Under the pieces are notes generated by a model. The model saw only the letters and a list, made by a program, of their open reading frames with translations, did not search any database and was not told where the DNA came from. DNA of 39,525 bases from Hyalangium gracile (GTDB lineage: Bacteria > Myxococcota > Myxococcia > Myxococcales > Myxococcaceae): NCBI RefSeq assembly GCF_020103725.1, contig NZ_JAHXBG010000030.1, forward strand, positions 100,337 through 139,861. Reading direction: 5' to 3'. Shown piece by piece: positions 1 to 39,525 of this stretch. Positions within the stretch are counted from its first letter, which is position 1. The number at the start of each line of letters is the position of its first letter. The translations under genes and the position numbers were made by a program.

Positions 1-326
1 GTTGGTACATTGTCGCCGTCGAAACCAAGTGCCTCGCTATGGCACGTACTCCCGTTGAGTTATCGATCGAACTTGAGAGCACGTTCCATGCGCGCGGCGA
101 CCGTCCCGCAGCTATCGACCGACACATGGAACGGGTGGAATGGCTCCGAAAACATCGAGAGGCGGTTCTGGCGCTTTTCGGGCTGCCCGCAGCGAAGGGG
201 AAGAAATGGAAGGTTCAGGGAGTCGTCGTCCTCGATAAGGAACTCATATCCCCGCTACTCGTCCATCTCCCCATGCCTGTCCTGTCGCTGAGGCAGCTCC
301 AGAGCGAGGGCTTGCCTCTGGGCTAG
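1..326 (+). CDS. 5'-partial ORF, hypothetical protein. The frame is open from window base 3 (upstream of the M at 39, the frame reads ...WYIVAVETKCLA...), and an hhhExK-like motif suggests a possible PD-(D/E)xK nuclease-like C-terminus.
   Basis: The frame has no stop between nt 3 and the M at 39, so the gene probably continues upstream. The region is ~57% GC versus ~70% for the window. The 'IVAVETK' motif is suggestive only; no recognisable family. Confidence 0.3.
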   Translation, partial: WYIVAVETKCLAMARTPVELSIELESTFHARGDRPAAIDRHMERVEWLRKHREAVLALFGLPAAKGKKWKVQGVVVLDKELISPLLVHLPMPVLSLRQLQSEGLPLG

Positions 327-588
327 TGAGCAATGTCTAGCCATGAATCCCGCCTTGCATGTCGTCTCTCGCCTTACGACAACTAGGGCAGAGTTCGAAC
401 CACTTCTTCATGTGAACGGCAGCCGCAATCCGATGAAGAAAATGACGGTCGGGTGCCCCTCCATCGTGAGCCTGAGTTCCCTACTTCCGGCGCATGACCT
501 GGCGGATTCTTCTTGAATTAGACGCTCCGACGGTCGACACGACCGTTAAAAACCATCGAATTAACAATGCCGTCTACAGGCCTCATAT

Positions 589-2397
589 CTACGGCCATCG
601 CTCGACAGGGATGGCAAGGTTCTCCGTATGCAAGAGAGGCTCGTTGGGCTTCGAGCCGGGTTCCTTGATGGAGTAGCCATCCGTGCCGAGGGTGTAGCAC
701 ACCGGGAAGCGACGCCCGTCCGGCAGGAGCATCTCCGTGTAGCGGCCGTAGACGGCCTCTCTTCCCTCGATAGAGAGGCCTTCCGTCCAGAGCTGCCCGT
801 ACAGCAGGGTCCCGTCGGGCACGGGATAGTCGTGCTTCCATCCTTCGGGGAGCTCGACCCGGCTGACGATTTTTCCCGCGTGGTAGACGCCCACTCGCCG
901 CTGTCCCCTCCCGCCGGGCTGGTGGATGTCGATGACGACAGGGAGGACATTGCTGCCGATCATGTCCCTCTTGAACAGGTTCAGCTCTTTCATGCGCTGG
1001 ACGGTTTCCGGGGGACAGTCCTCGGGAATGGGCCGCAGTTGGGGCGCGGCGCAGCCGACGCTGAAGGTGGTGCACAGCCAGGCGGCCACGGTCCTGACGG
1101 GCCACGAGTTGCGGAGGGTGGACACGAGCGAACTTCCTTTCTCGGATGAGGCGGGAGCCAACCACTCCCAGCCGGCGGTGAGGAGGCCGAGGCTCAGCAG
1201 AACCAGCCCCACCCCCAGGCCGATTCTCCTCCATCGCTTCCTGCGGAGAGCGGCTTTCTCCTCCAGGGTGCGAACCTCCGCCTCCATCTGCTGGATGGCG
1301 GCGGAGAACTGCTCCAGCGTCTGCACGGCGGAGCGCTCCTGCTGCTGCTGCCGAGCCTCCTGGCCCCGGTGCTCGGCCTGCTGCTGGTGAAGGCGGCGCT
1401 CCTCCTCCTCGTCCTGGGTCCTGGGAGCGGGGCCTCCGGAGGGCAGGGCCAGCGACGCCTTCCACTGCTGGGTGGAGCGCCGCTTGTTGGCCTCCCACAG
1501 CGCCTGCAGCAGCACCTCGGCGCTCGCGTAGCGGTCCTCCGGGCGCTTCTCGAGCAGCCGCATGGCGATGCGGCTGAGCGACTCGGGCACGGCTGGGTTG
1601 AGGCGGTGGGGCGCACGCGGGACGACGGTCTGAATGGCTGTGAGCAGCTCGTCCGCGGGCATCCGCGCGTCGAAGGGCCAGCAGTCGGTGAGCGCCTCGT
1701 ACATGAAGACGCCCACCTGGTAGAGGTCGCCGGCCGGCGTGGCGGTGAAGCGCGCGCCCTTCTTCCAGGAGCCCTCGCGCAGGAAGGCAATGGACTCGGG
1801 CGGAAAGGTGTGGGGCGTGCCGGGAGCCAGTCCCACGGTGAGGGTGGAGCCGCCCGGCAATCGCGCGCTGCCCATGTCCACCAGCACCGGTTTCTGGTCC
1901 TCCGGGACGAGGACGTGCGCGCTCTTGAAGTCGCGGATGAGGATGCCGCGGCGGTGCAGCCCCGCCACCACGCGCACCACGGCGATGAAGATGTCCGCCA
2001 ACTGGGCGGCGGTAGGGCGGGTGCGCTCACGCCAGTCATGGAACGGCTCGCCGGGCACGAAGTCGGTGACGATGAAGAGATAGCCCTTCTTGGGATGCGG
2101 CCACCGGCCGATGGCCCGCACATGAGGCAGTCCGTCGGCGCTGCTGTTGGCCAGGAGGACGGCGCCCTCGTGGCGCATGCGCCCATCCACCTGACTCTCT
2201 TCCAGGTTCTTCTCGCGCGTGTCCTCGGAGAGCTCGGGGGCTGGGCGCACCGCCATCTTCAAGGTGAAGAACTCGCCCGCCAACTCGGCCTTGAATGCAT
2301 GCCCGAAGCTGCCGCTGCCCAGCGAGGCGACGATGTGCCAGGGGCCCACCTTGTCCCCCGGCTTGAGGTGGTCGGGGTGAAACGCCTCCGTCGTCAT
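589..2397 (-). CDS. Membrane-anchored Ser/Thr protein kinase (Hanks-type) with a coiled-coil, one TM helix and a ~180-aa extracytoplasmic C-terminal domain
   Basis: N-terminal kinase motifs: a glycine loop LGSGSFGHAF, the lysine in FTLKM, a catalytic-loop-like IRDFKSAHVLV, and DMGSA in place of DFG. Downstream come a Gln/Glu-rich coiled-coil, a hydrophobic helix GLGVGLVLLSLGLLTAGW and a Cys-containing extracellular domain. The stop lies at 589. Confidence 0.85.
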   Translation of the reverse strand: MTTEAFHPDHLKPGDKVGPWHIVASLGSGSFGHAFKAELAGEFFTLKMAVRPAPELSEDTREKNLEESQVDGRMRHEGAVLLANSSADGLPHVRAIGRWPHPKKGYLFIVTDFVPGEPFHDWRERTRPTAAQLADIFIAVVRVVAGLHRRGILIRDFKSAHVLVPEDQKPVLVDMGSARLPGGSTLTVGLAPGTPHTFPPESIAFLREGSWKKGARFTATPAGDLYQVGVFMYEALTDCWPFDARMPADELLTAIQTVVPRAPHRLNPAVPESLSRIAMRLLEKRPEDRYASAEVLLQALWEANKRRSTQQWKASLALPSGGPAPRTQDEEEERRLHQQQAEHRGQEARQQQQERSAVQTLEQFSAAIQQMEAEVRTLEEKAALRRKRWRRIGLGVGLVLLSLGLLTAGWEWLAPASSEKGSSLVSTLRNSWPVRTVAAWLCTTFSVGCAAPQLRPIPEDCPPETVQRMKELNLFKRDMIGSNVLPVVIDIHQPGGRGQRRVGVYHAGKIVSRVELPEGWKHDYPVPDGTLLYGQLWTEGLSIEGREAVYGRYTEMLLPDGRRFPVCYTLGTDGYSIKEPGSKPNEPLLHTENLAIPVERWP

Positions 2398-2410
2398 GAG
2401 CGCGTCCTCA

Positions 2411-3289
2411 CTACTTTGCCTCGAGGTTCAAGGAGATGCGCTGCTGGCCACTGGCGTCCAGGACTTCCACGGCAAAGGACGTTTTCTCCAAGGGAGGCAG
2501 CACCGCCTCGACCACCAGCGACCCATGCTCACCAGGAGCCAGTTGCTCCGGCTTCATTCGAACCGAGATCACCTTGACGGGTGCTCCTGGTAGACCCGTG
2601 ATGCGCGCCTGACCTGGCGTCCAGGGCGGCTGACCCGGCAGGTTCCAGAGTGAGATGACCACCAGCGTCGAGAGGGTTCCCCGGTAGACAGAGCCGTGCT
2701 TGGGTATCAAGCCCATGGAACTCGGTGAGGGTGTGCCCACGTGGAGATCCCTTTTCTGCACTCCCTCGGTGAGCCACCCGGAGAAGACGAGGCTGGCGGG
2801 CCCCAGCTCCGTGCTCCGGGCCTTGAGTTCCTCCAACTCCGCTTCCTTCTGAGTGAGGGCAGCGATCAGTGCCTCGGGCGTATGGGCCCGCCGGTCCACC
2901 TCCACCTTGGCGTCCACGACGTCCGCCTTGGAGAGGACGGCGAGGACGGCCTTGGCGGGCAGGGCCTTGTCCTTGAACCCCACCTGAAGGATGAGCCGCT
3001 CGCCGGGACTCAGGTCCGCAATGGGCTCCAGGACGAGGGTGTTGTCGCCCACGTCCACCCACCGGAAGCGGGTCCGGTCCACCATGAGGCTGTTCTTGTC
3101 CAGGGGGCCGTTGAAGGCCACGACGGTGGAGTTGCCCGCGGCCACATACACCTCGGGGAGGGAGTCGGCGGGGGTAGAGGGCAGCGAGGCGCGGCGGTCC
3201 TGGCGCTGCCGCGCGGGCTGAGGCTGGGCGGCGGCGGTGCTCGCAGCCAGCAGGGGAACGAGGAGCAACCACGTGATGGGTCGGGTCAA
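2411..3289 (-). CDS. Secreted hypothetical protein with an N-terminal signal peptide, lying 14 nt upstream of the kinase on the same strand
   Basis: MTRPITWLLLVPLLAASTAAAQP is a classic signal peptide. No known domain was recognised. The 14-nt gap to the kinase start suggests co-transcription. Confidence 0.55.
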   Translation of the reverse strand: MTRPITWLLLVPLLAASTAAAQPQPARQRQDRRASLPSTPADSLPEVYVAAGNSTVVAFNGPLDKNSLMVDRTRFRWVDVGDNTLVLEPIADLSPGERLILQVGFKDKALPAKAVLAVLSKADVVDAKVEVDRRAHTPEALIAALTQKEAELEELKARSTELGPASLVFSGWLTEGVQKRDLHVGTPSPSSMGLIPKHGSVYRGTLSTLVVISLWNLPGQPPWTPGQARITGLPGAPVKVISVRMKPEQLAPGEHGSLVVEAVLPPLEKTSFAVEVLDASGQQRISLNLEAK

Positions 3290-3662
3290 CGAAGCAGAAC
3301 CTCCAGGGTTGAGCCTATCACACAGGCGCTCCCGTCATGCGACGCGGGCGCTGTACGCTCCCTGTCCTCGAGGAACTGGGGAGGATGACCGCAACGCCTG
3401 GTCCAGGTGGGTCCGAAGAAATTCTTGCGCGCTGGAGGGAGGCGCCTGTGCCAAGGGAGCGGCCTGGCCACGGAGGCGCCCCTGTGCGCGGACCGGTGCC
3501 CAACTGGTATGACAAGCAGACCAGTACGGACCGGTTGCGCCCGGCAGGAGGGCGGACCGTTCCATGGGAGCTCCCCGCGCCTGCAAGGGGCGCCCCCTGC
3601 GCGCCAGGAGTCTTCCGCGCGGAAAAGGCCGTCAAGCGTCCGCCGTGATAGGGGCCATTCCG

Positions 3663-4451
3663 ATGCATGCTGAATGCGCCTTCCATCCTGGCCATCCATC
3701 GGTCTTCACATGTGCTCGGTGTGGCAGCTTCGCGTGCGAGGCCTGCCGCCGTGAGGGGTCGGAGCCTGAGCTGTTGTGCGAGCGGTGCCTTCGTCCACCT
3801 GCTCGCGAGCTTCTTCCATGGGACCGCGCCGATGCGCGCTGGAGCCTCTTCCTCGCGACGTGCTGGGCGCTCCTCCGCGCGCCACGACATACCCTTGGAC
3901 TCGCGCCGCCGACTCCCACTGCGCGCGGCTCATTACGCTTCGCACTGCAGGCGTGCTCGGTCTATTTCATCGCGGAGTCACTGTTGGCTCGCGTGAACCC
4001 AACGACCACCCTAGATGTCCCCACTCCCGCGCCACTCGCGTTCTTCCTCGACATGGTGCACTGGGGGACCAGTCCGGTGCTGGCCATCCTCGTGATGCTG
4101 GGGGGCTTCGGTGTGCTTCCGTGGATGGACTGGCTCGTGCTTCGCGGCCGGCGAGCCAGCTTTCGTGCGTGCCTGCGTGCCACAGCCCTGGCATGTGCCC
4201 CGATGATCTCGTCCGTGGTCTTCGCGTTGCTCGGGACGCTCCTGCTCGTGACCTGGCAACCATCTCGGCTGTGGAGCATCTGCGCGGGTGCGTTGCCCCT
4301 CTGGTTCTTGGTGCTGTGGCTCTGGTGCGGCACACTGAGGGCTCACGCCCTTCAGATCTTCTTCTCTCTGCGCTGGTGGAGAGCATGGGTGCTTGCCTTT
4401 GCAGGTCCTCTCATGCTGTGTGGACTCGCCATGTCATTGAACCGGATCTGA
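3663..4451 (+). CDS. Zinc-ribbon (three CxxC pairs) N-terminal domain fused to a polytopic membrane domain (Yip1-like/DUF-type); hypothetical
   Basis: Starting from the internal ATG the protein begins MHAECAFHPGHPSVFTCARCGSFACEACRRE...CERC, followed by 4-5 predicted TM helices. The six-frame ORF begins at 3564 but its first 33 codons are Arg/Gly-rich with no start context. Confidence 0.5.
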   Translation: MHAECAFHPGHPSVFTCARCGSFACEACRREGSEPELLCERCLRPPARELLPWDRADARWSLFLATCWALLRAPRHTLGLAPPTPTARGSLRFALQACSVYFIAESLLARVNPTTTLDVPTPAPLAFFLDMVHWGTSPVLAILVMLGGFGVLPWMDWLVLRGRRASFRACLRATALACAPMISSVVFALLGTLLLVTWQPSRLWSICAGALPLWFLVLWLWCGTLRAHALQIFFSLRWWRAWVLAFAGPLMLCGLAMSLNRI

Positions 4452-4579: not shown

Positions 4580-5482
4580 ATGAGCCTGGACGCGAACGAG
4601 CGCGCGGCGCTGTCCCTGATGGGCCTCTCCGTAGGAGACGCCTTCGGCGATCAGTTCTTCCGCTTCGCGGAGCAGGAGGAACGGCTCGTCGCCGAGCGCA
4701 TGGCTCCTCCCGGGCCGTGGCCCTACACGGATGACACGGAGATGGCGCTGTCGGTGGTCGCCATGCTGAGGCGGCACGGGAGAATCGAGCAGGACCCGCT
4801 CGCGCTCGATTTCGCCCGTGGCTATGACCCCTCGCGCGGCTATGGCCCCGCGATGCACCGGGTCCTCAACGCCCTGCGTGAAGGACAGCCGTGGGCGGAG
4901 GTCACGCGGCGCGAGTTCTCGGGGCAGGGGTCCTGGGGCAATGGGGCGGCCATGCGTGTGGGCCCCTTGGGGGCCTACTTCGCGGAAGACCTGCACGCCG
5001 TCGTCGAGCAGGCTCGCCGCTCCGCCGAAGTCACCCACGCACATCCCGAGGCGCTCGCGGGCGCCATCGCCGTCGCCGTCGCGGCGGCACTGGCCTGGAA
5101 CTGCCGCCTGGAGAGTCCGCGGCCTGGCCGCGCCGGTTTCCTGGACCGCCTGCTGCCCTTCGTCCCCGCCAGCGATGTCCACAGCCGGTTACGCAAGGCG
5201 CGGGATCTGCCCGCGAACTCCAGCGTCCCCTTCGCCGTGAGCGTGCTCGGCAATGGCACCAACCTGTCCGCGCAGGACACGGTGCCCTTCGCGCTCTGGT
5301 GCGCGGGCGAGCGGCTCGACGACTTCGAACAGGCCCTCTGGCTCACGGTCAGCGGAGGCGGAGACCGGGACACCACGTGCGCCATCGTGGGAAGCATCGT
5401 GGTGCTCGCTTGCGGTGCCGAGAGCATTCCCTCGGCCTGGCTCACTGCCCGGGAGCCATTGCCCAACGCCAGCGAGCGGTGA
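4580..5482 (+). CDS. ADP-ribosylglycohydrolase family protein (DraG/ARH-like)
   Basis: Family signatures are present: MGLSVGDAFGD, PYTDDTEMALSV, SRGYGPAMHRV, GSWGNGAAMRVGPLGAYF and the C-terminal TVSGGGDRDTTCAIVGSI. The start could alternatively be 4508. Confidence 0.8.
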   Translation: MSLDANERAALSLMGLSVGDAFGDQFFRFAEQEERLVAERMAPPGPWPYTDDTEMALSVVAMLRRHGRIEQDPLALDFARGYDPSRGYGPAMHRVLNALREGQPWAEVTRREFSGQGSWGNGAAMRVGPLGAYFAEDLHAVVEQARRSAEVTHAHPEALAGAIAVAVAAALAWNCRLESPRPGRAGFLDRLLPFVPASDVHSRLRKARDLPANSSVPFAVSVLGNGTNLSAQDTVPFALWCAGERLDDFEQALWLTVSGGGDRDTTCAIVGSIVVLACGAESIPSAWLTAREPLPNASER

Positions 5483-5485
5483 CGA

Positions 5486-6349
5486 CTACTTGTACTCGGG
5501 CTCGGTGCGAGCGGAGCGAGCGGGGAGGGGGCGCGGAATGGCCTTCTTCTCGGCGGAGAGCCACTCGCCGTCATAGGTCGTGAGCAGCCGCTCGAGCCCC
5601 TCAGCCCAGAGCGGCGCGGTGTCGTCGATGGATCGACGGATCCACCACGCCGTTGCCGAGCGCACATGGTTCGGATCGTGACCGCCCCAGTTCTCGTCCG
5701 CGGTGCCGAGCACCTCATGGTAGAAGTCGAGGGTCGGGCCGAACGCATCGGTGGCACCCCGCTGGGCGGCGCTCAGGTACGTCTTCCTCTCGGCCTGGAC
5801 CCAGCTGGAGTTGGCGGAGAGCGCGCGCCAGACGCGGTAGTACGTGCGCGCCAGCGTGCGCGCGGAGCGGTCGTAGACGGCCTGGGTCTCCTGGCGCAGT
5901 GCCTCGTCCGTCGCGGCGGGGACCAGCGCCGTCGTCGCCCACTTCACGAAGGCGGGATCGTAACGGCCGAAGTCCTTGGAGCTCTGCAGGTTGAGCTTGC
6001 CGTTCTGGTGCGGGCCCGAGCGGAAGGGCTTCACTGGCGCCAGCGAGAGGAACGTCTTCCAGGAGATGACCGAGAGCGCGCGGCAGAAGAAGTTCCGCAT
6101 GCCCCCTTCGTCGCCATAGTCGAACGCAAGGTCGTCCCCGCAACGCGGTCCGCTCGCCTGGGGCAGCAGGTGCCAGGCCTCGGAGAGGCTCTTGGCCCGC
6201 TTATCCTCGGCGCCTTTCTTCCGCGGGCGCGACGTATCGGCAGGCGGTGCCTTCGACCGGGGACCATCATCGCCGCCGGCGACAGCCGCGCTGGAGAGGA
6301 GGACGGCGGCCAGGGCCACCGCGGACACGGACACGACCAGGAGACGCAT
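5486..6349 (-). CDS. Secreted hypothetical protein (signal peptide MRLLVVSVSAVALAAVLLSSAAVAGG)
   Basis: An internal ATG at 6349 gives a canonical signal peptide. The longer six-frame ORF (to 6595) adds an Arg/Gly-rich leader that is unlikely to be translated. No domain was recognised. The gene converges on the ADP-ribosylglycohydrolase gene. Confidence 0.5.
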   Translation of the reverse strand: MRLLVVSVSAVALAAVLLSSAAVAGGDDGPRSKAPPADTSRPRKKGAEDKRAKSLSEAWHLLPQASGPRCGDDLAFDYGDEGGMRNFFCRALSVISWKTFLSLAPVKPFRSGPHQNGKLNLQSSKDFGRYDPAFVKWATTALVPAATDEALRQETQAVYDRSARTLARTYYRVWRALSANSSWVQAERKTYLSAAQRGATDAFGPTLDFYHEVLGTADENWGGHDPNHVRSATAWWIRRSIDDTAPLWAEGLERLLTTYDGEWLSAEKKAIPRPLPARSARTEPEYK

Positions 6350-6789
6350 GCTTCCTCCGCAGGAAGCCGAGTCTGGCATAACGGCCGTGGAGGAGGGGGC
6401 GCTCGCGCCGTGCGAATCGGAGGAGCAATCTGATCGCAGAGGGTAGGTGGGTGTGGGACCAGGAGGGCCAGCTCGTCCCCACCTGATCCGAAACCCTCTC
6501 CGTCCGGAACCCGACCCCCGCTCCTGGCCAGACGTTCGTTTCTTCAGCCTGAGCCCCGCCGACGTGGCGCGGAGGGTGGCCGAAACGTCATCCACCGTGC
6601 GCTGCGGGTTTCACCCGTGAAAAAAATGCACGGTCCGGGGTACTCCGCACCTTGCCCGTGGGGCATCGGATGTGCACTTGGATGCGCCAACACGGAAGCC
6701 GCGCGTCGCTGGGACGCTCCGGTCTCCGAGGGGGCGCTGATCCTCACAGTACACCGCGGCCTGCCCCCACACGGCCGCGCCGGGACCCT

Positions 6790-7611
6790 ATGTTGACCGT
6801 CCGTTCACTTCGCGTGCTCACCACGATGATCCTGGCCCTGACGGCCCTGAACGCCGCCGGGCAGCAGGAGCAGCTCCTCGAGCCAGCCGTCGTCCGCAAC
6901 CGCCTCTACCGGCCCGCGGGCAACCTGGAGTTCTCACCCAGCGTGGGCGTCTCGATGCTCACCTACCTCACCGCCCACTACACGCTCGACGTGGGGGTGG
7001 CCTACAACCTCTTCGACACCATCGCCGTGGAAGGCCGCGCCGGCTACGCCTTCAGCCGGCAGACGGGCCTGGCCCGCTCCATCTCCGAGAGCTTCCTCGG
7101 CCGCGACGACAAGAAGGTCACCGACGAGCTCCAGGACCTGTGGCGGATGAACCTCCACGGCATCTTCGGCGTGCGCTGGGCTCCCGTGTACGGGAAGCTC
7201 TCGCTGCTGGCCGAGGTCCCCGCGCACTTCCAGGTGTACCTGTGGGGCGGCGGCGGGATGGCCTCGTTCCAGCGCCAGTCGCTGATCCAGTGCTCCCAGG
7301 TGGTGAACCGGGACCTGGGCATCTGCGACGACCGCACCGATCCGCTCGATCGCTCCACCTCCTCCGAGAACTTCTGGGTGAAGGAGTCGCGGGTGGCTCC
7401 GGTGGTGAGCGCGGCGGTGGGCTTCCGGTTCTTCGCCTTCGAGCGGCACGGCGTGAAGTTCGAGCTGCGGGACTGGGTGTTCCGCGACGCCTACCGCGTG
7501 GAGCTGTCTCGGGATGACTGGGAGGCGGGCCGCGAGACGGGCACGCCCGCCGCGAGCCCGGGCTTCACGCACCTGGTCCAGTTCGACATCGGCTACACCT
7601 TCCTCTTCTAA
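6790..7611 (+). CDS. nfsA: Outer-membrane beta-barrel protein, first gene of the Glt/Nfs-type cluster (NfsA/GltA-like)
   Basis: It has a signal peptide (MLTVRSLRVLTTMILALTALNAAGQ), alternating amphipathic beta-strand pattern and a C-terminal ...GYTFLF ending in Phe (OMP signature). Position and ~273-aa size match NfsA/GltA. The naming nfs versus glt is an inference from gene order. Confidence 0.7.
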   Translation: MLTVRSLRVLTTMILALTALNAAGQQEQLLEPAVVRNRLYRPAGNLEFSPSVGVSMLTYLTAHYTLDVGVAYNLFDTIAVEGRAGYAFSRQTGLARSISESFLGRDDKKVTDELQDLWRMNLHGIFGVRWAPVYGKLSLLAEVPAHFQVYLWGGGGMASFQRQSLIQCSQVVNRDLGICDDRTDPLDRSTSSENFWVKESRVAPVVSAAVGFRFFAFERHGVKFELRDWVFRDAYRVELSRDDWEAGRETGTPAASPGFTHLVQFDIGYTFLF

Positions 7612-7617
7612 GAACCC

Positions 7618-8829
7618 ATGCGAACGATCCTGTCCTTCGCGGTGCTTCTGTCCACGGTCGCCGGCGCGCAGCCCGCTGTCGCGCAGGCCGAGCCCACGGT
7701 GCCCGCGCCCGGCGCCGAGACCTCCATTCCGCCCTCGGTGTCCGCGCCCTCGGAGCCCGTGGCCCGTCCTCAGACGCCGCCCGCGCACGAGATGGGGACC
7801 ACCGTCCCCACGGAGCAGTCCCGCCCCGCGCCCCGAGCTCCCTCCGCCGACGAGGCCGAGGAGACCGAGGCCCCGGCGCCCACCGAGGCCGCCGCGCCCG
7901 CTCCGGAGCAGCCCGCCTCGGATGCTCCCGTGGCGGTGGCGGACGTGGACACGGAGCTGCGCACCACGACGCCGGAGCAGCAGCGGCTGGTGCACGGCGC
8001 GCCGCTCTACAACCCGAACGTCTCGGTCCACATCGTCCAGAAGAAGCGCTTCGCGGACGAGGGCAGGCACGAGTTCGCGCTCTACCCGGTGGCGGTGCAG
8101 GTGAACGGCCGCTTCACCAACCACGCGGGCAGCGCGCTCAACTACACGTACCACCTGCAGGAGAACTTCGCCGTCCAGCTCACGGGCCAGTACAACTGGT
8201 ACTCCAACGAGAGCGGCTTCAACCTGGAGCTGATCGACAAGGTGCGCGAGCAGGCGCAGGCGGCCTCCTCGCTGCTGCTGAACTGGGGCGCGCAGGCCGG
8301 CGTCGAGGTGACGCCGTTCTATGGAAAGTTCGCCTTCTACGACAACCACCTGGCGCAGTTCAGCCTCATCATCAGCGGCGGCGCGGGCTTCGGCGGCACG
8401 CGGCACCTGATCCGCCCGGAGGTGGACAACGAGGTGGAGGGCGAGACGTTCACCGTCCCGGCCCGCTTCGGCGACACGGGCACCAAGTTCCTGGGCTCGG
8501 TGGGCGGAGGCTTCCGCATCCAGTTCGGCGACTCCTACGCCGTGCGCTTCGAGGTGAAGGATCTCGTCTACACCGCGCGCGTGGATCGGGTGGACGGCTG
8601 CAACCTGGCCGACTTCGAGAAGATGGAGGCCGCGCGCGCCAGCAACGCCCCGTTCTCCGAGCTGGCGCTCAGCGGCAGCTGCCGGTTCCAGAAGTTCGAC
8701 GGCGTGGACCCCAAGACGAAGAAGAACTACCGCGAGGACATCATCCTCGGGAGGGACCTGGTGGCCGAGCCCTCCTCGGACGTCCTCAACAACGTGAGCT
8801 TCTACGCCGGCTTCTCGATCCTCTTCTGA
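7618..8829 (+). CDS. nfsB: Outer-membrane beta-barrel protein with a Pro/Ala/Glu-rich linker (NfsB/GltB-like)
   Basis: A signal peptide MRTILSFAVLLSTVAGAQPAVAQA is followed by a low-complexity PAPE-rich region and a beta-barrel half ending ...FYAGFSILF. It lies 6 nt after the previous gene, and its stop overlaps the next gene's start (ATGA). Confidence 0.7.
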   Translation: MRTILSFAVLLSTVAGAQPAVAQAEPTVPAPGAETSIPPSVSAPSEPVARPQTPPAHEMGTTVPTEQSRPAPRAPSADEAEETEAPAPTEAAAPAPEQPASDAPVAVADVDTELRTTTPEQQRLVHGAPLYNPNVSVHIVQKKRFADEGRHEFALYPVAVQVNGRFTNHAGSALNYTYHLQENFAVQLTGQYNWYSNESGFNLELIDKVREQAQAASSLLLNWGAQAGVEVTPFYGKFAFYDNHLAQFSLIISGGAGFGGTRHLIRPEVDNEVEGETFTVPARFGDTGTKFLGSVGGGFRIQFGDSYAVRFEVKDLVYTARVDRVDGCNLADFEKMEAARASNAPFSELALSGSCRFQKFDGVDPKTKKNYREDIILGRDLVAEPSSDVLNNVSFYAGFSILF

Positions 8830-33182: not shown

Positions 33183-33572
33183 TCAGCGGATGGGTCCTCC
33201 CGCGCCGGCCGTCCCGCTCTCCCTCGCTACACGGCTCCGCTCGTCGGCCAGCTCCACACGAGCCTGTATGGTGCGTTGGCCCAGTACGTACGGAACCCAC
33301 AGCGCCAACAGCTTCCACACGGCAATACCCGCGTTGGACAGCAGTCGGTCCACCTGTTTCACTCCGTGCTTGCCCTGAGCCCCTCGGGCCAGCGCCACCG
33401 CTTGGCCGATGGCGTACACCGACAGGCTGGCCGCGTGGATGACTCCCAACGTGGCCAGCGCCAGCGACAGCACGCGCTTGGCGTGCAGATCCTCTCCGAA
33501 GAGGCCTTCGAGGCAGGTACGCACCTGCTGCTCAGGGATGGCGGAGGAACTCACCGGCCACGTAGTATGCAC
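33183..33572 (-). pseudogene. Truncated IS4-family transposase N-terminal fragment (remnant)
   Basis: HAKRVLSLALATLGVIHAASLSVYAIGQAVA...HGVKQVDRLLSNAGI matches the conserved N-terminal region of IS4-type DDE transposases. Only ~129 aa are present, and no DDE core follows before the aminotransferase gene. Confidence 0.55.
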
Positions 33573-33642
33573 CGCACCCTACCTGGCGCATCAAGCGTTC
33601 AACTCGGCGCTTGTCTGCTTGCCCGCAAGATGAGGGGATGCC

Positions 33643-33897
33643 TCAGGGTGTTTTGATGAGAATTCCAGTCTCGAATGCTGTGTGAGTCCGAGCGACCGTG
33701 AAGGCTTGATCGAGTTCTTGGGTGCGCAAAATATCGATCCAGGGCGCACTGCGCTTTGCTTTCTCGCATACTGCGAAGGTGAATCCTCTTTCTTGAGCTA
33801 GTTGGAGATCTTCTGCGGGTGGGTTCAGTGAAGGGTCGGACATGTGAGAGCCTTTGCTACGGGCGCATGCCTCAAGGCGATGCGAAGTTGGTGGCAC
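33643..33897 (-). CDS. Small hypothetical ORF in a low-GC islet (possible orphan immunity gene)
   Basis: The ~50% GC here contrasts with the ~70% background. The ORF lies between the IS remnant and the RHS immunity gene. No homology was recognised, and it could be spurious. Confidence 0.25.
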   Translation of the reverse strand: MPPTSHRLEACARSKGSHMSDPSLNPPAEDLQLAQERGFTFAVCEKAKRSAPWIDILRTQELDQAFTVARTHTAFETGILIKTP

Positions 33898-34032
33898 AGC
33901 GCATGGCGCAAGACGTCCAGCGGGTGCTCGATCAACGACTGCTGCCCGTGGTGGTGCTTACCGACGGTGAGCCGGAGATGATGAACCTGCTTGAGCAGGT
34001 GTTGGCCGCGCACGTGCCCAAGGCCACGCGGA

Positions 34033-34359
34033 TTAGGATTCTTTTGCTCCAAAGCTGTGATCCCATGCCGAGAGTGTAACGGCGCACTCTTTTTCGAGTT
34101 CGGGCCATTTTCGACGGACTTGATTAAGCACCTCGGTTAGCCGATCGCGGCTATCGTACGGGAAGGAGTCTCGCATCAGTAATGCAATGCGAGCTTTTTC
34201 TATATTGTCTCCTTCTAGCCATTGTTGTCTTGCCGAGATGATTTGGGACGCCATCTCTTCATCGAGGGCCCACATGAGTTCCTCAAGGATCTCCGCAAAG
34301 CCTTGGTCGGGTAGTGCTTGTGCGCGTCTTGAGAAGAGGAAGTCAGCAATGTTCTCCAT
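34033..34359 (-). CDS. Putative immunity protein for the RHS C-terminal toxin (108 aa, acidic)
   Basis: It starts 12 nt downstream of the RHS stop on the same strand, in low-GC DNA (~48-50%). Position and size are typical of polymorphic-toxin immunity genes. No family was recognised. Confidence 0.5.
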   Translation of the reverse strand: MENIADFLFSRRAQALPDQGFAEILEELMWALDEEMASQIISARQQWLEGDNIEKARIALLMRDSFPYDSRDRLTEVLNQVRRKWPELEKECAVTLSAWDHSFGAKES

Positions 34360-34371
34360 TTGGGCTCCTTT

Positions 34372-37300
34372 CTAATTTTTTCGACGATAGGTAGTTGTAG
34401 TTGCCGAAGACGTATTCGACAAGGGTGTTCCCGCAGTCCGTTTGGGGACTCCGAAAGAATGGATTGATTCTAGTGGGGCAGATTCAATGAATTCAAACCC
34501 CGCGTCCTCCGCTACTTCAGGTTTTACTGCCTTGGCGTACTTGTTCGCTGGGGACCCAGAAACCTTTAGCAAGCCGCCTGGTCGCGTGACACGTGCGATT
34601 TCCTGGGATACTGGCCTGAAGCCATAAGGGTTAATGGCATGCACTTCGTCAAAGTATGATGCTGGAAATGGTAGATCGTTCGCATCCGCAACAATATCCA
34701 CCCCGGGAAGTTTCTTGATATCCACGTTGACCGCACCGGTCATCGGGTTATCTCCCGAGCCGAGATTCAGAATGCGCTTGGGATAAGCCCTTGCGAGTGC
34801 CTCATAGCTTTGTGGCAGTTCTCCGTTCTCACCTGCTGCGGCGGCGCTGTGAGCGCTTCCCCCAGATGGACTCTCCGTCGCTTGTGTGACGCTCTCGTGA
34901 ATGGAGCCGAGCCTGCCAGACGTTGCTGTGCTTCCGATGGGCCGCGCCGCCCGAATGGCGGTGCCAGCACCAGTGACTACTTCGGTTGCTCCTTCCTGCA
35001 AGCCATAGGCTGCAGCGTTGCCTAGATCGTCGGCGAGGCCTGCTATAGTGGAGTATGCTTTGCCTAGAACAGCCCCTCCTGCGCCCCCGAGGATAGAGCC
35101 TACTCCAACCTGTATGGAGACCTCGTGCAGGCTTACGGATGCGCGGCGACCGCTGCTGACATCAATGGACTGTGTCACTAGAGAATCACCACCACCCATT
35201 ACGGCCCCGCCAAAAACTCCTCCAATGGCAGTGGCGAGGACAGTTCCTGCGCCTAGGCTGGTGGCTGCTGCTGTTGCGACACCTCCAGTAGCGATTGACA
35301 GTCCAGCAACACCAGCACCTGCAGTACCTGAGAGTGCAACCTGTCCCCATTGAGTTCTCGACGTGGCATCCGAGAACGAAACGGCTTTGTTCTGATCGGC
35401 CTGCTTGAAGAAGTTCAGTTCTGCGCTGATGAGTGCTGCGCCAATGATGATCAGCGGGATGACTTTACCGCTCGGATCGGTGTACACTGCAGGGTTGTTT
35501 GCGGCGTACACGTATCGGTGCAGGTTCGGAGCGGCAGTCGGAATCAATTCGAGCGGGTCTCTGCTGATAAAGCGACCCAGTTCGTTGTCATAGTATCTTG
35601 CTCGTGCGTACGTGAGTTCAGTCTCTACGTCGAACTGGTGCCCCGTATAGCCGAGCTTGAAGTTATCGGCTGAGGGAGCCGTTTCTCCAATGTGACTCCC
35701 CCACACGTCGTACTTCCTTGCGGTCATTACCCTGCCAGTTGTGGAGGTGGCGTCGGACACGCTGCCTAGAGCATCGTTGCTCAGGAAGTTCGTAGTGGTG
35801 CAAATAGACGTGTTGTCGCTAACAGCCAAGGCCTCATGGGCATAGTGATAGCGGCGCATTGCTTGGCGAACTGTGTCTTTTTCTTGGAGAACGAAGTCGT
35901 CATCTAGCACGTACTCGACGTTCTCTAGTGCTGTGCGGCGCCAGGTTCGCTGGAGGTTAGCATCGTAGTCGTAGCGCCCCGTCTCCAGATTGTTGTCGTG
36001 CACCACTGTCAAAGTGTTGCGGATGTCCCATGAGAAGGACCGAATGCGCGAGGAGGAGATGAAGGAGGTGAGATTGCCGTTAGCGTCATAGCTGATTTGA
36101 CGTTCCCTCGAACTGTCCAGTCGATCGGCAAGGCGAATCAGCCAGTCAACACGGTTGAAGGTTCCGGAGGTGTCGCGCGCGAGTTGACCTGCAGGTAGCG
36201 AGTCGAAGGCGTCAGGCCCCAGTGATGAGACAACGGAAGAGGAGGCGTCTCGCTCTCCAATGCGATTGCCGACAGCGTCCAACTGGTAGAGGACCGCGCG
36301 ACCATCTGCGTAGGCTACGCCCGTGAGCCTGTCGAGGGCGTCGTAGCCGTAGGTGGTGGTCTCGGGAGCAGCGATCGACCCTGTATCGGGTCGAGTGCGT
36401 GTCTCTATCTGGCGCAGACGATTGCCATTGAAGTCGTAGACGTAGACGAAGCGACTTCGTAGCGTGCCCTTGGGCGTGCAGTCTTCGGAAACGGCCCCTT
36501 GGGCCAGGACGAGTTGGGTGATTTGGCCAGCAGCGTCATAGCACCGCGTTTCCGTCAAGCCGTTGGGCAGTTCCGTGTTCTTCAGCAGCGAGTCAGGCCA
36601 GTATTTGAAGTAGGTTGTCCCCTCGGGAATCGTCGCTTGGGAGAGCCGGCCTAGCGCGTCGTACTCGTAGTTCGTCGAGATATTGTCCGGATCTGTAATG
36701 CTCTTTCGCCGCCCCGCTGCGTCGTAGGTGAAGGCGATGTTCTTATTCGAAGGGAGTGTGGTGCTCTCAAGCCTGTCGAGCTTGTCGTACGTGTGTGTGG
36801 TGTGCTGCTGAGCGACAGTGCTCGCATCGGTCCGTTTGGTTTCGATGATGTCGGTGAGATTGCCGTTGGCGTCGTACGTGAAACTCTGCGCCTCGATAGA
36901 GGGGAAGGCTCTCGGCAGAGCGTGGTTCGAGTAGGTGCGTGAGGCCAGGCGGTCCAACAATCCATAGACGGAGGCTGTTACTTGCCCCTTGGCGTCGGTG
37001 AAGGTCTTGAGGTTGCCGTTGGCGTCGTACGTCGAGCGCCAGGTAAGGGTCCCCACGTCGGACAGGGTCTCGGCGCCTGGTTCGAAGAGCGGCAGGGTGG
37101 TTCTGTGCGCCGCAGTCAGCCGCAAGTGCGCGTCGAGGTGGACGTGCTCGGCGGTGCGATGGCCGAGTGCATCGAACTCGAACGTCGAGAGGTTCCCGTT
37201 GGCATCCTGCTTCGCCACGAGGTTGCGTGTGGCGTCGTAGACGAAGGAGTAGTGCCCTTCCAGCGCATCGACCACGTCCGTGAGCTTGCCTACCTCGTCA

Positions 37301-39525
37301 TAGGTGTAGCGGGTGACGTGGGTTCCTGTGCAGACCTGATCCCGGATCTGCTCCACCGTGAGGCCCGTCGCCTGACCGTGCCTCAATGTCGGGTGGCCCA
37401 GCGGGCGCTTCACGCACAGAAGGTTGCCCGTGGCGTCATAGGCGCTTGCCGTGACTCGCTCCAGGGCATCCTCGGAGCGCACTTGCCGGTTCAGGTCGTC
37501 GTAGGTCCAGCGGTTCGTGTAGGGCTTGCCTGGGTCTCTCGGGCGCAGTGTGGAGACCAGGTTGCCGACGGCGTCATAGGTGTGCCGGGTTGTTGCCGCT
37601 TCCGGCGTGCCTACTCCTCGTGTCTCCTCCAGCAGTCGACCCGCGGCGTCGTAGCGGTAGCTGCTCGTGTGATGGTTAGGATCGATCCGTGTCACCGCCA
37701 GGCCTGCGGCGTTGTAGGTCGTAGACTCAGTGCGGATCGTGTTGCCGAGGCCTCGCATCTCGTTCACCCGCCGGCCCAGGCCATCATGGAGACGCACGGT
37801 GGGAATCTCGCGCCGGTCCACCAGGGTCTCGCTGCGTGCGGCATCGTCGTACGTATTGGTCTGGGTGTAGCGTGCCGTGGGCTGGTTGATGTCGAAGTCC
37901 TGCTGCTTCGTGAACCTTCCCGCAGCGTCATAGTCGTAGCGGGTCGTGTGTCCCTTGGCATCGCGTGCGACTCGCAGGTTCTGCGCGTCGAAGCGGGACT
38001 CGCGAACATGGTTCAGTGCGTCATGCACGCGCACCTCGCGATGCAGGCCGTCCTGGACGTGAATGGTTTCAAACGTGCGAGCGTCCCGCTCCACCACGCG
38101 AACCAGACCGGTGTCGGTATCAGGCGTATCGAGGTACAGGCGCTCCAGCGTGGTGAGCGGTGTGCCTCCTCGGGAGATGCTCTCCACCAGCCGCTCGAGC
38201 GCCGGCCGGCCCGCGACGTCGTAGCCCGTGGTCCGGACGATGCCGCGACCATCCGTCTGCTGAATGGCGTGACCCTCGCCGTCATAGACGAAGGACTCGA
38301 TGACGCCCATGGGCTTGCGCCGCTCCAACAGCCTCCCCAGCGCGTTGTGCTTCTCCTCGGTGCGTCGGTTCAGCGCGTCCACCTGGGCTGCCAGGTGGCC
38401 GTGACTGTCGTATTCGAAGCGGGTGGTCAGCCCGAGCGCGCTTCCCACGCTCGAGTCATCCGGCGTGCGCCCCAGTGTGCCGCTCGGCTCGCTGGCCGCG
38501 TCCACCGTCTGCTGGTAGGTCCGGTCCAGGTCGTCCTTGAGGACCACCGTCAAGAAGCCGCGGGCATCCTTCGTCGCGACCGCGTTCTGCGCGTCGGCGT
38601 AGGCCATCCGCGTTTCGTAGGTGTCCGTCGCATTCCCCAGGCTCTTGAATGTCTCCTTCACCTCGACGGGACGGTTCAGCCCGTCGTACCGCGCCGTGCG
38701 ACGACGCTGCTCGATGCCTCCCGCCAGCCAGCGCTCCACCTTGGGGTTGCCATTGAGGTCGTATTCGCGTCTCTCCTCTCGGCCCACCGGATCCACCGTG
38801 CGCACGAGTCGGTTGGCGAAGTCGTACTCCATGCGCGTCTCGTGGGCGTTTCCGTCCACACTTCGCGTCTTGTTGCCCACCAGATCGAAGCGCGCGAGTG
38901 TCTCGTAACGCTGAGGTGGCGCATCCATGTCCGGCCCAGGCACGCTCGGGCTCTGCACGCGCACTACGCGATACAGCGAGTCGAGCCCGTAGTTCGTCCG
39001 ATGGCCGTGGATGTCTGTCTCGAAGGCCCGGTTGCCTGCGGCGTCGTAGCCATACGTGGCCACCACGCCCTGCTGCCCCACAATGCCTTCCACTCCATTC
39101 TGCGCCAGGAAGGCACCTCCCACCGCAGGGGCTATGCTCACGCGCACGGGCCGGTCGGCGAAGTCATAGTCCGTCTTCGTCTCGACTCCCCGCCGGTCGG
39201 TGACGCTCACCCGATTGCTGGCCTCGTCGTAGCCGTAGCGCGTCTCGAGCGGGCTCGACAACCCTCCGCCTGACTCCGTGACGCGTGTCACGCGATTCAG
39301 CGCGTCCAAGGTGTAGAGGCGCTCGAAGTGCGTGGCCGGGTGGTACTCTCGGCGGAGCTGGCCTTCGGGGTAGTACTCGCGCTGCTGCACCACCGATGGG
39401 GAGGCGCCCTTGCTGTTCACGCGAATCACGGTGGTGGGGCGGTCCAGTCCGTCGTACTCCTGCAGCGTCTTGTGTCCAAAGGTGTCGGACTCGGACAGCA
39501 AGCGCCCTCTGCCGTCGAACTCCCG
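34372..39525 (-). CDS. RHS/YD-repeat polymorphic toxin (5'-partial; >1715 aa in window) with a C-terminal Gly/Ala-rich hydrophobic segment and a minimal class-I SAM-methyltransferase-like toxin domain
   Basis: Dozens of YD repeats are present (GxxYxYDxxGNL, RYxYD..GRL). The RHS core terminator is RARYYDNELGRFISRDPL...NPAVYTDPSGK. The ~363-aa C-terminal tip contains ILNLGSGDN (motif I), VNVDI, ADANDLPFPASYFDEV (motif II) and VTRPGGLL (motif III). The frame is open to the window end. Confidence 0.85.
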   Translation of the reverse strand, partial: REFDGRGRLLSESDTFGHKTLQEYDGLDRPTTVIRVNSKGASPSVVQQREYYPEGQLRREYHPATHFERLYTLDALNRVTRVTESGGGLSSPLETRYGYDEASNRVSVTDRRGVETKTDYDFADRPVRVSIAPAVGGAFLAQNGVEGIVGQQGVVATYGYDAAGNRAFETDIHGHRTNYGLDSLYRVVRVQSPSVPGPDMDAPPQRYETLARFDLVGNKTRSVDGNAHETRMEYDFANRLVRTVDPVGREERREYDLNGNPKVERWLAGGIEQRRRTARYDGLNRPVEVKETFKSLGNATDTYETRMAYADAQNAVATKDARGFLTVVLKDDLDRTYQQTVDAASEPSGTLGRTPDDSSVGSALGLTTRFEYDSHGHLAAQVDALNRRTEEKHNALGRLLERRKPMGVIESFVYDGEGHAIQQTDGRGIVRTTGYDVAGRPALERLVESISRGGTPLTTLERLYLDTPDTDTGLVRVVERDARTFETIHVQDGLHREVRVHDALNHVRESRFDAQNLRVARDAKGHTTRYDYDAAGRFTKQQDFDINQPTARYTQTNTYDDAARSETLVDRREIPTVRLHDGLGRRVNEMRGLGNTIRTESTTYNAAGLAVTRIDPNHHTSSYRYDAAGRLLEETRGVGTPEAATTRHTYDAVGNLVSTLRPRDPGKPYTNRWTYDDLNRQVRSEDALERVTASAYDATGNLLCVKRPLGHPTLRHGQATGLTVEQIRDQVCTGTHVTRYTYDEVGKLTDVVDALEGHYSFVYDATRNLVAKQDANGNLSTFEFDALGHRTAEHVHLDAHLRLTAAHRTTLPLFEPGAETLSDVGTLTWRSTYDANGNLKTFTDAKGQVTASVYGLLDRLASRTYSNHALPRAFPSIEAQSFTYDANGNLTDIIETKRTDASTVAQQHTTHTYDKLDRLESTTLPSNKNIAFTYDAAGRRKSITDPDNISTNYEYDALGRLSQATIPEGTTYFKYWPDSLLKNTELPNGLTETRCYDAAGQITQLVLAQGAVSEDCTPKGTLRSRFVYVYDFNGNRLRQIETRTRPDTGSIAAPETTTYGYDALDRLTGVAYADGRAVLYQLDAVGNRIGERDASSSVVSSLGPDAFDSLPAGQLARDTSGTFNRVDWLIRLADRLDSSRERQISYDANGNLTSFISSSRIRSFSWDIRNTLTVVHDNNLETGRYDYDANLQRTWRRTALENVEYVLDDDFVLQEKDTVRQAMRRYHYAHEALAVSDNTSICTTTNFLSNDALGSVSDATSTTGRVMTARKYDVWGSHIGETAPSADNFKLGYTGHQFDVETELTYARARYYDNELGRFISRDPLELIPTAAPNLHRYVYAANNPAVYTDPSGKVIPLIIIGAALISAELNFFKQADQNKAVSFSDATSRTQWGQVALSGTAGAGVAGLSIATGGVATAAATSLGAGTVLATAIGGVFGGAVMGGGDSLVTQSIDVSSGRRASVSLHEVSIQVGVGSILGGAGGAVLGKAYSTIAGLADDLGNAAAYGLQEGATEVVTGAGTAIRAARPIGSTATSGRLGSIHESVTQATESPSGGSAHSAAAAGENGELPQSYEALARAYPKRILNLGSGDNPMTGAVNVDIKKLPGVDIVADANDLPFPASYFDEVHAINPYGFRPVSQEIARVTRPGGLLKVSGSPANKYAKAVKPEVAEDAGFEFIESAPLESIHSFGVPKRTAGTPLSNTSSATTTTYRRKN

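Follow-up and report, generated by a model that had tools for sequence, protein, structure and literature searches.

The window, i.e. the whole stretch of 39,525 nucleotides of Hyalangium gracile DNA analyzed here, carries on its minus strand a large RHS-repeat gene directly followed by a short open reading frame (ORF), the candidate immunity gene studied here (Table 1). The RHS gene extends beyond the window, so that the N-terminus of its product is located outside. The RHS nature of this carrier was confirmed by matches to RHS_repeat (E 3.4e-80 over 8 stretches) and to the Rhs_assc_core model TIGR03696 (E 5.5e-12), and the DPSGK motif at the end of the core corresponds to residues 1350-1354 of the partial RHS ORF. 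RHS repeats, core and a variable C-terminal domain, hereafter named the tip, are all present. The RHS gene terminates with a TAG codon at 34372-34374 and the ATG of the short ORF is found at 34359-34357, which leaves a gap of exactly 12 nt (34360-34371) between the two co-oriented genes. The initial annotation had described a 108-aa acidic ORF 12 nt past the RHS stop, co-oriented and lying in the same low-GC islet, and had recognized in this arrangement the typical position of an immunity gene. Coordinates, isoelectric point and GC content agreed with this description, and the same layout was found in the fetched loci L001, L005, L007, L010, L019 and L020.

Two further elements of the RHS gene were examined. 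About 110 nt 5' of the ORF ATG, a weak match to a sigma-70-like promoter was detected; one such match was found for 0.6 expected by chance, and it could conceivably drive expression of the ORF independently of the toxin. The Gly/Ala-rich segment that separates the Rhs core end from the tip contains glycine-zipper-like runs, and it is partly conserved in L005 and absent in L001 and L019. Judging from its sequence, it is possibly a membrane-translocation or entry module, or a linker.

The base composition of this region differs from that of its surroundings. GC content is 0.505 in the ORF and 0.511 in the tip, compared with 0.68 across positions 1-33000 of the window, and the GC3 of tip and ORF together is about 0.5, compared with 0.83-0.95 in neighbouring host genes. 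A low-GC islet could be delimited at approximately 33600-37000 (GC 0.51-0.59 versus 0.68). This islet also takes in about 1.5 kb of RHS repeats located 5' of the core end, where GC3 is 0.56 versus 0.83 further 5'. The extension of low GC and GC3 into the repeats suggests that a large 3' part of the RHS gene was swapped in by recombination. Downstream of the ORF, two weak matches to transposase fragments were detected, one IS4-like and one ISKra4-like, together with an 84-aa ORF without family. They look like the decayed edge of a mobile low-GC islet.

Table 1. Coordinates of features in the window and in the loci compared with it (positions are those of the respective locus).
Locus	Feature	Positions	Strand	Remarks
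Window	Candidate immunity ORF	34033..34359, stop codon included	minus	108 aa, ATG start, acidic, predicted all-helical
Window	Shine-Dalgarno site AAGGAG	34365..34370	minus	5 nt 5' of the ORF ATG, inside the 12-nt gap; read from the sequence
Window	Putative toxin tip	34375..34779	minus	135 aa, basic, class I SAM methyltransferase-like; NLGSGDNP...NVD...HAINPYGF...ARVTRPGGLLKVSG
Window	Gly/Ala-rich hydrophobic segment, between Rhs core end and tip	34780..35463	minus	~228 aa; from the translation
Window	Rhs core end, DPSGK motif (DPxG-type)	35464..35478	minus	PAVYT just before; motif search
Window	RHS-repeat toxin gene	34372..39525	minus	ORF list; N-terminus outside the window
Window	Sigma-70-like promoter match TTGAAT-18-TAGAAT	34467..34496	minus	Consensus scan; inside the tip coding region
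Window	IS4-like transposase fragment	33183-33572	minus	Weak, E 0.027
Window	ISKra4-like transposase fragment	33819-34079	plus	Weak, E 0.016; 47-nt overlap with the 3' end of the ORF
Window	84-aa ORF	33643-33897	minus	Without family
L001	Tip	7588-7986		2.2-Mb metagenomic contig; RHS/YD-shell protein ends in the tip, 12-nt gap; partner ~26% identical to that of the window
L005	Tip	288-692		Tip 69% identical; partner 64% identical
L019	Tip	492-878		RHS tail and tip, 6-nt gap
L020	Tip	1475-1876		Non-RHS carrier and tip; tandem-doubled partner, 4-nt overlap
L002/L003/L004/L006	Tip remnant and partner			Gammaproteobacteria MAG; 70-aa C-terminal remnant, within an orphan-cassette array
L007	Tip	2424-2825		Standalone, 149 aa
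L010	Tip variant	2753-3070		RHS-borne
L021	Fused family member (P0021)	422-1270
L022	Three tandem family members	5251-7572
L023	Three tandem family members	839-3160
L008	ORF after divergent tip	2179-2742		~185 aa
L009	ORF after divergent tip	2240-2788		~185 aa
L024	ORF after CdiA-like tip relative	3430-3978		182 aa

The product of the short ORF and an annotated "hypothetical protein" of Hyalangium gracile are 100% identical, and an exhaustive phmmer search of 1.84 billion cluster representatives (clusters at 50% identity) retrieved 146 homologous representatives at E<=1e-3, 40 of them at E<=1e-10. The ORF is therefore more than a chance reading frame. Members of this family are mostly metagenomic, nearly all measure 100-115 aa (median 110), and 97% have a pI below 6; the protein of the window itself has a pI of 4.6 and a net charge of about -8. 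In an alignment of 70 members, which was too divergent for deriving search patterns, residue W47 is invariant, and W30, A59, L60, P86 and C92 are near-invariant. Their pattern suggests core or structural sites in a helical repeat and not a catalytic constellation. Tandem doublets occur in the family (P0005, P0006, P0037 and P0044), as do fusions, to a GNAT domain in P0021 and to HEAT_2 repeats in P0088. P0089 (1511 aa, 7 matching stretches) is a eukaryotic repeat protein and was discarded as a spurious member. A second Hyalangium gracile paralogue, WP_224244263.1 (P0158, 108 aa), is encoded on another contig (475 kb) and is 73% identical over 80 aligned residues.

Comparison of the ORF with Pfam, NCBIfam, PADLOC and PHROGs gave no meaningful match. 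The same was true of the 70 family members against Pfam, where one stray match to DUF982 (E 0.0096) appeared, and all matches of the family profile to PDB sequences had E>0.7. The ORF was found neither in a scan of genome contigs nor, by tblastn, in plasmids. The initial annotation had stated that this protein has no recognisable family; this stands for the curated libraries just named, and gives way elsewhere to an uncurated family of 146 representatives.

The AlphaFold2 model of the small protein, computed with the 70-sequence alignment, has a pLDDT of 96 and a pTM of 0.88 and contains six helices. The arrangement of these helices in the model is that of an alpha-alpha solenoid of the HEAT/ARM-like type. 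Since six helices are present, the ORF product is predicted to be a mini alpha-solenoid of about three hairpins, a binder-type protein without obvious catalytic constellation. A Foldseek search of the PDB with this model returned nothing with E<1. A sequence kinship to canonical HEAT repeats was considered and rejected: none of the 70 members matches the HEAT models of Pfam, and hhalign gave a probability of 0.2% for the comparison with the HEAT_2 repeats of P0088. The N-terminus, MENIADFLFSRRAQALPDQG, shows no hydrophobic signal-like stretch, and the model is that of a soluble six-helix domain. The protein, devoid of recognizable signal peptide or transmembrane segment, is probably cytoplasmic.

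The tip was then compared with known enzymes. The Methyltransf_11 model matched the 135-aa tip with 21.5 bits, for a gathering cut-off of 21.2, and a longer piece with 18.8 bits; among nine tips, five matched at E<=0.1. When a profile of the nine tips was searched against the PDB, the 24 best matches were all SAM-dependent methyltransferases (best E 2.7e-4). In a joint alignment with ordinary standalone methyltransferases (L013, L016 and L018), G7 and G9 of motif I (GxG) and N18 and D20 at the end of strand 2 are invariant, and LPF...FD...RVLKPGG motifs are common to both groups. Ordinary small methyltransferases (L013, L015-L018 and L025-L028) are 37-43% identical to the tip in their N-terminal half. 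The tips differ from Methyltransf_11-type enzymes after strand 4, where they carry a conserved NP(Y/F) signature of their own in place of (V/I)(L/I)EH and are 6-8 residues shorter, and in their own C-terminal half, H.FGV...G..L.T....TYRR. Unlike ordinary methyltransferases, they are basic and occur as putative toxin tips with candidate immunity genes. A single-sequence AlphaFold2 model of the tip reached a pLDDT of 36.8, and the resemblance of the tip to the SAM methyltransferase fold is drawn from sequence profiles only. In the RHS-borne variant of L010, L011 and L012, about 30 residues corresponding to strands 2-3 are missing; the resulting sequence, NVDPPYEHY, recalls the DPPY motif known from amino-methyltransferases. 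This variant may be degenerate or may represent a distinct subtype.

No match to a toxin family was obtained when the tip was compared with described toxin families and with curated toxin or immunity libraries. Full-text literature searches retrieved no methyltransferase-type polymorphic, T6SS or Rhs toxin and no immunity protein of such a toxin, and the word "methyltransferase" occurs 0 times in the text of Zhang et al. 2012 (PMC3482391). A word-indexed protein search with the tip gave no match, not even to the tip itself, and a scan of genome contigs recovered only the Gammaproteobacteria MAG already found. In viral contigs, the tip matched only ordinary methyltransferases, through their N-terminal half and with no member of the small-protein family nearby; a phage link is therefore not supported.

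The initial annotation had raised the question of whether the tip and the ORF always travel together. The small-protein family and the tip were each modelled as an HMM, and all fetched loci were scanned with both. Eight independent loci, counting the window, were reached via the small protein. In six of them (the window, L001, L005, L019, L020 and the group L002/L003/L004/L006), the family member directly follows the tip or what remains of it (70 aa), and in two (L021 and L022/L023) it does not; the sample is small and made mostly of short contigs of metagenomic origin, and since the tip itself served to find some of the loci, counts of co-occurrence are biased. Tip and partner overlap by at most 4 nt and are at most 19 nt apart. 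The array of L002 also holds a Colicin_D/Colicin_immun pair and a Tox-ART-HYD1/DUF6881 pair. Additional loci were reached via the tip search. In L007, a standalone tip is directly followed by a family member, and in L010/L012 an RHS protein bearing the tip with the 30-aa internal deletion is followed by a family member, with a second copy 2 kb downstream. The sequences of L011 and L014 end at the tip, and two records without DNA have the same layout, a large gene then one or two small genes.

Tip and ORF were thus found as a pair in the window, L001, L005, L007, L010/L012, L019 and L020, and as remnant and partner in L002/L003/L004/L006, in answer to the question raised above. The tip matched directly upstream of the partner may be borne by an RHS protein (the window, L001, L010/L012 and L019) or a non-RHS protein (L020), stand alone (L007) or be reduced to a remnant (L002). 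The pairing follows the tip and not the RHS carrier. This adjacency is kept even by family members as low as 20-36% in identity, in very different hosts.

In the two loci without tip, the family members are fused or in tandem. The member of L021 is part of an in-frame fusion, with a GNAT acetyltransferase domain on its N-terminal side, and has no tip upstream. In L022 and L023, three members follow one another in tandem and no tip lies in the vicinity; the first of them is joined to HEAT_2 repeats, and the second has an N-terminal extension of 150 aa. This triplet resembles a polyimmunity cluster without toxin. The link between family and tip is therefore not obligatory. The initial annotation had held that conservation of the ORF independently of RHS tips would speak against an immunity function. 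Taken literally, such independence exists in L021 and L022/L023. Toxin-less single or tandem immunity genes are known in polymorphic-toxin systems, where they have been named "polyimmunity loci" (Zhang et al. 2012, PMC3482391), and since such loci are a known feature, L021 and L022/L023 are consistent with immunity and do not refute it.

The properties of the two partners were also compared between loci. Each of the seven pairs combines a basic tip (pI 8.0-11.7) with an acidic partner (pI 4.5-5.0), and these opposite charges give indirect support to a possible binding between the two. Between loci, tips share 43-69% identity and partners 20-64%, indicating that the partner evolves faster than the tip. 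Loci with more similar tips also tend to have more similar partners (Pearson r 0.61, p 0.003; Spearman 0.41, p 0.06), for a small number of pairs that are not independent. Correlated divergence is the usual signature of toxin-immunity co-diversification, here with a small n.

More divergent tips are associated with other partners. In L008, a 151-aa standalone tip overlaps by 4 nt a partner of another family, and the ~185-aa ORFs that follow the tips of L008 and L009 are homologous to each other (E 2e-12). A distant relative of the tip keeping ENPY...RIIQPGGVLKTTG forms the end of a hemagglutinin-repeat (CdiA-like) protein on a plasmid of Leptotrichia wadei (L024), and the ORF downstream from it is unrelated to the others. 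As divergent tips adjoin two other unrelated ORF families, one toxin fold appears to have recruited at least three candidate immunity families. L008/L009 and L024 would each follow the usual pattern, in which one toxin clade goes with one immunity family. These sequence comparisons portray the tip as a putative polymorphic toxin module for which no fewer than three alternative families of partners exist.

Could the small protein act for the tip instead of against it? As an accessory factor (chaperone, stabiliser or activator), it would assist folding of the tip, its encapsulation in the RHS shell or its delivery. A tight linkage to the tip would also be expected of a dedicated chaperone, and HEAT-like solenoids are generic binders. 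Known T6SS/Rhs chaperones (Eag/DUF1795, DUF4123 and DUF2169) are, however, encoded upstream and matched to N-terminal or transmembrane regions, not paired with the toxin tip. Family members moreover persist beside a truncated, non-functional 70-aa tip remnant and exist as toxin-less tandem triplets, both of which fit immunity and do not fit a chaperone, and in L007 tip and partner occur without any delivery scaffold. We regard a role as accessory factor as highly improbable. The standalone two-gene versions of L007 (149-aa tip and family member) and L008 (151-aa tip and other partner) are also what would be seen if tip and ORF were a toxin-antitoxin module, of the addiction or abortive-infection type, that became fused to an RHS protein, with the ORF acting as antitoxin within one cell. 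These versions may equally be plain orphan cassettes, and the pair had no match to PADLOC defence models. The RHS proteins of the window, L001, L010/L012 and L019 end in the tip, which comes after the DPxG core end; a relative of the tip ends a CdiA-like protein, and L002 is a classic orphan-cassette array. The chances of a toxin-antitoxin module appear slimmer still; mechanistically, the small protein would be the same neutralising binder.

The existence of members without tip in L021 and L022/L023, and the fusion of one of them to a GNAT acetyltransferase, would suit an ORF that does not bind the tip directly, being either an unrelated hitchhiker or an enzyme that reverses the modification made by the toxin. 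No match to an enzyme family was found, and the six conserved residues of the family look structural, not catalytic. For a hitchhiker, adjacency to the tip held at such low identity across such different hosts is unexpected. Of the explanations weighed here, we find an ORF without direct binding to the tip the least credible.

Comparative genomics therefore leads us to consider the ORF as very probably the cognate immunity protein of the methyltransferase-like tip, a function that we infer from genomic context. The recurrent adjacency of tip and partner, the fast divergence of the partner and the orphan array all lend support to the immunity function proposed in the initial annotation. The ORF would be translated from the RHS transcript, a shared transcript being likely because of the 12-nt gap and the ORF's own AAGGAG site, and its product would stay in the cytoplasm of the producer, as neither signal peptide nor hydrophobic segment is present in it. 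There, it would adopt a compact and strongly acidic fold, a HEAT/ARM-like solenoid of six helices, bind the basic tip 1:1 and block its substrate- or cofactor-binding face, so that producer and kin would be protected from toxin that is self-produced or delivered by siblings. Tip and immunity gene would form a single horizontally mobile low-GC cassette, which may be grafted onto different delivery scaffolds, RHS or others, and may also decay into orphan cassettes.

A broader proposal, which we put forward tentatively and with some doubt, is that the ORF founds an immunity family directed against undescribed interbacterial toxins of the SAM methyltransferase fold. Such toxins would kill their target cells, or arrest them, by methylation of an essential nucleic acid or protein, or through another SAM-dependent reaction, and the acidic mini-solenoid would serve as a substrate mimic or active-site plug. 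At least three immunity families would be involved, and the toxins would be borne by RHS, CdiA-like and other carriers. The NP(Y/F) signature found after strand 4 in the tips occupies the position of motif IV in amino-methyltransferases.

Rhs-CT/RhsI and CdiA-CT/CdiI are polymorphic toxin-immunity pairs (Zhang et al. 2012, PMC3482391; Ruhe, Low & Hayes 2020, as cited in PMC13018210). As in these pairs, the small protein described here is predicted to be cytoplasmic, and its gene is co-oriented with, and directly downstream from, a variable C-terminal toxin domain that follows DPxG; the foreign composition of the cassette, the orphan cassettes and arrays, and the presence of one tip on different scaffolds are also shared. 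Unlike in these pairs, the putative toxin tip and the candidate immunity protein match no curated toxin or immunity family. Imm-HEAT proteins are HEAT-repeat immunity proteins of Tox-REase-7/Ntox34 (Zhang et al. 2012, PMC3482391). By its predicted solenoid, the ORF product structurally resembles this class but falls outside it by sequence; it also differs in the number of its helical hairpins, only about three for 108 aa, and in being paired with a different type of toxin. In myxobacteria, similar immunity genes located downstream from YD-shell toxins were recently demonstrated to bind other C-terminal domains and to neutralise them (PMC13018210). The domains of that study are of the ART, HINT, nuclease, protease and OMP types; none is methyltransferase-like, and the word "methyltransferase" occurs 0 times in it. 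The locus of the window is similar to these bacterial teneurin-like/YD-shell toxins of Myxococcaceae in its RHS-shell protein, seen here without its N-terminus, its variable C-terminal domain and its small downstream gene.

The assignment of the ORF as an immunity gene corresponds to the textbook Rhs arrangement and is not surprising in itself, while the pair is undescribed. What is new is a family, with a fold predicted at high confidence, for unannotated proteins from 146 clusters, as well as genomic evidence, obtained independently, in favour of the tip being a true toxin module, namely dedicated and fast-evolving partners, orphan cassettes and several scaffolds. The interest lies mainly in the toxin that the ORF marks, and a demonstration that this tip is a methyltransferase toxin would raise it further. 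Since no methyltransferase-fold polymorphic toxin was found described, a putative toxin together with its antidote would offer a ready experimental handle on methylation as an interbacterial weapon. Such pairs bear on kin discrimination in myxobacteria.
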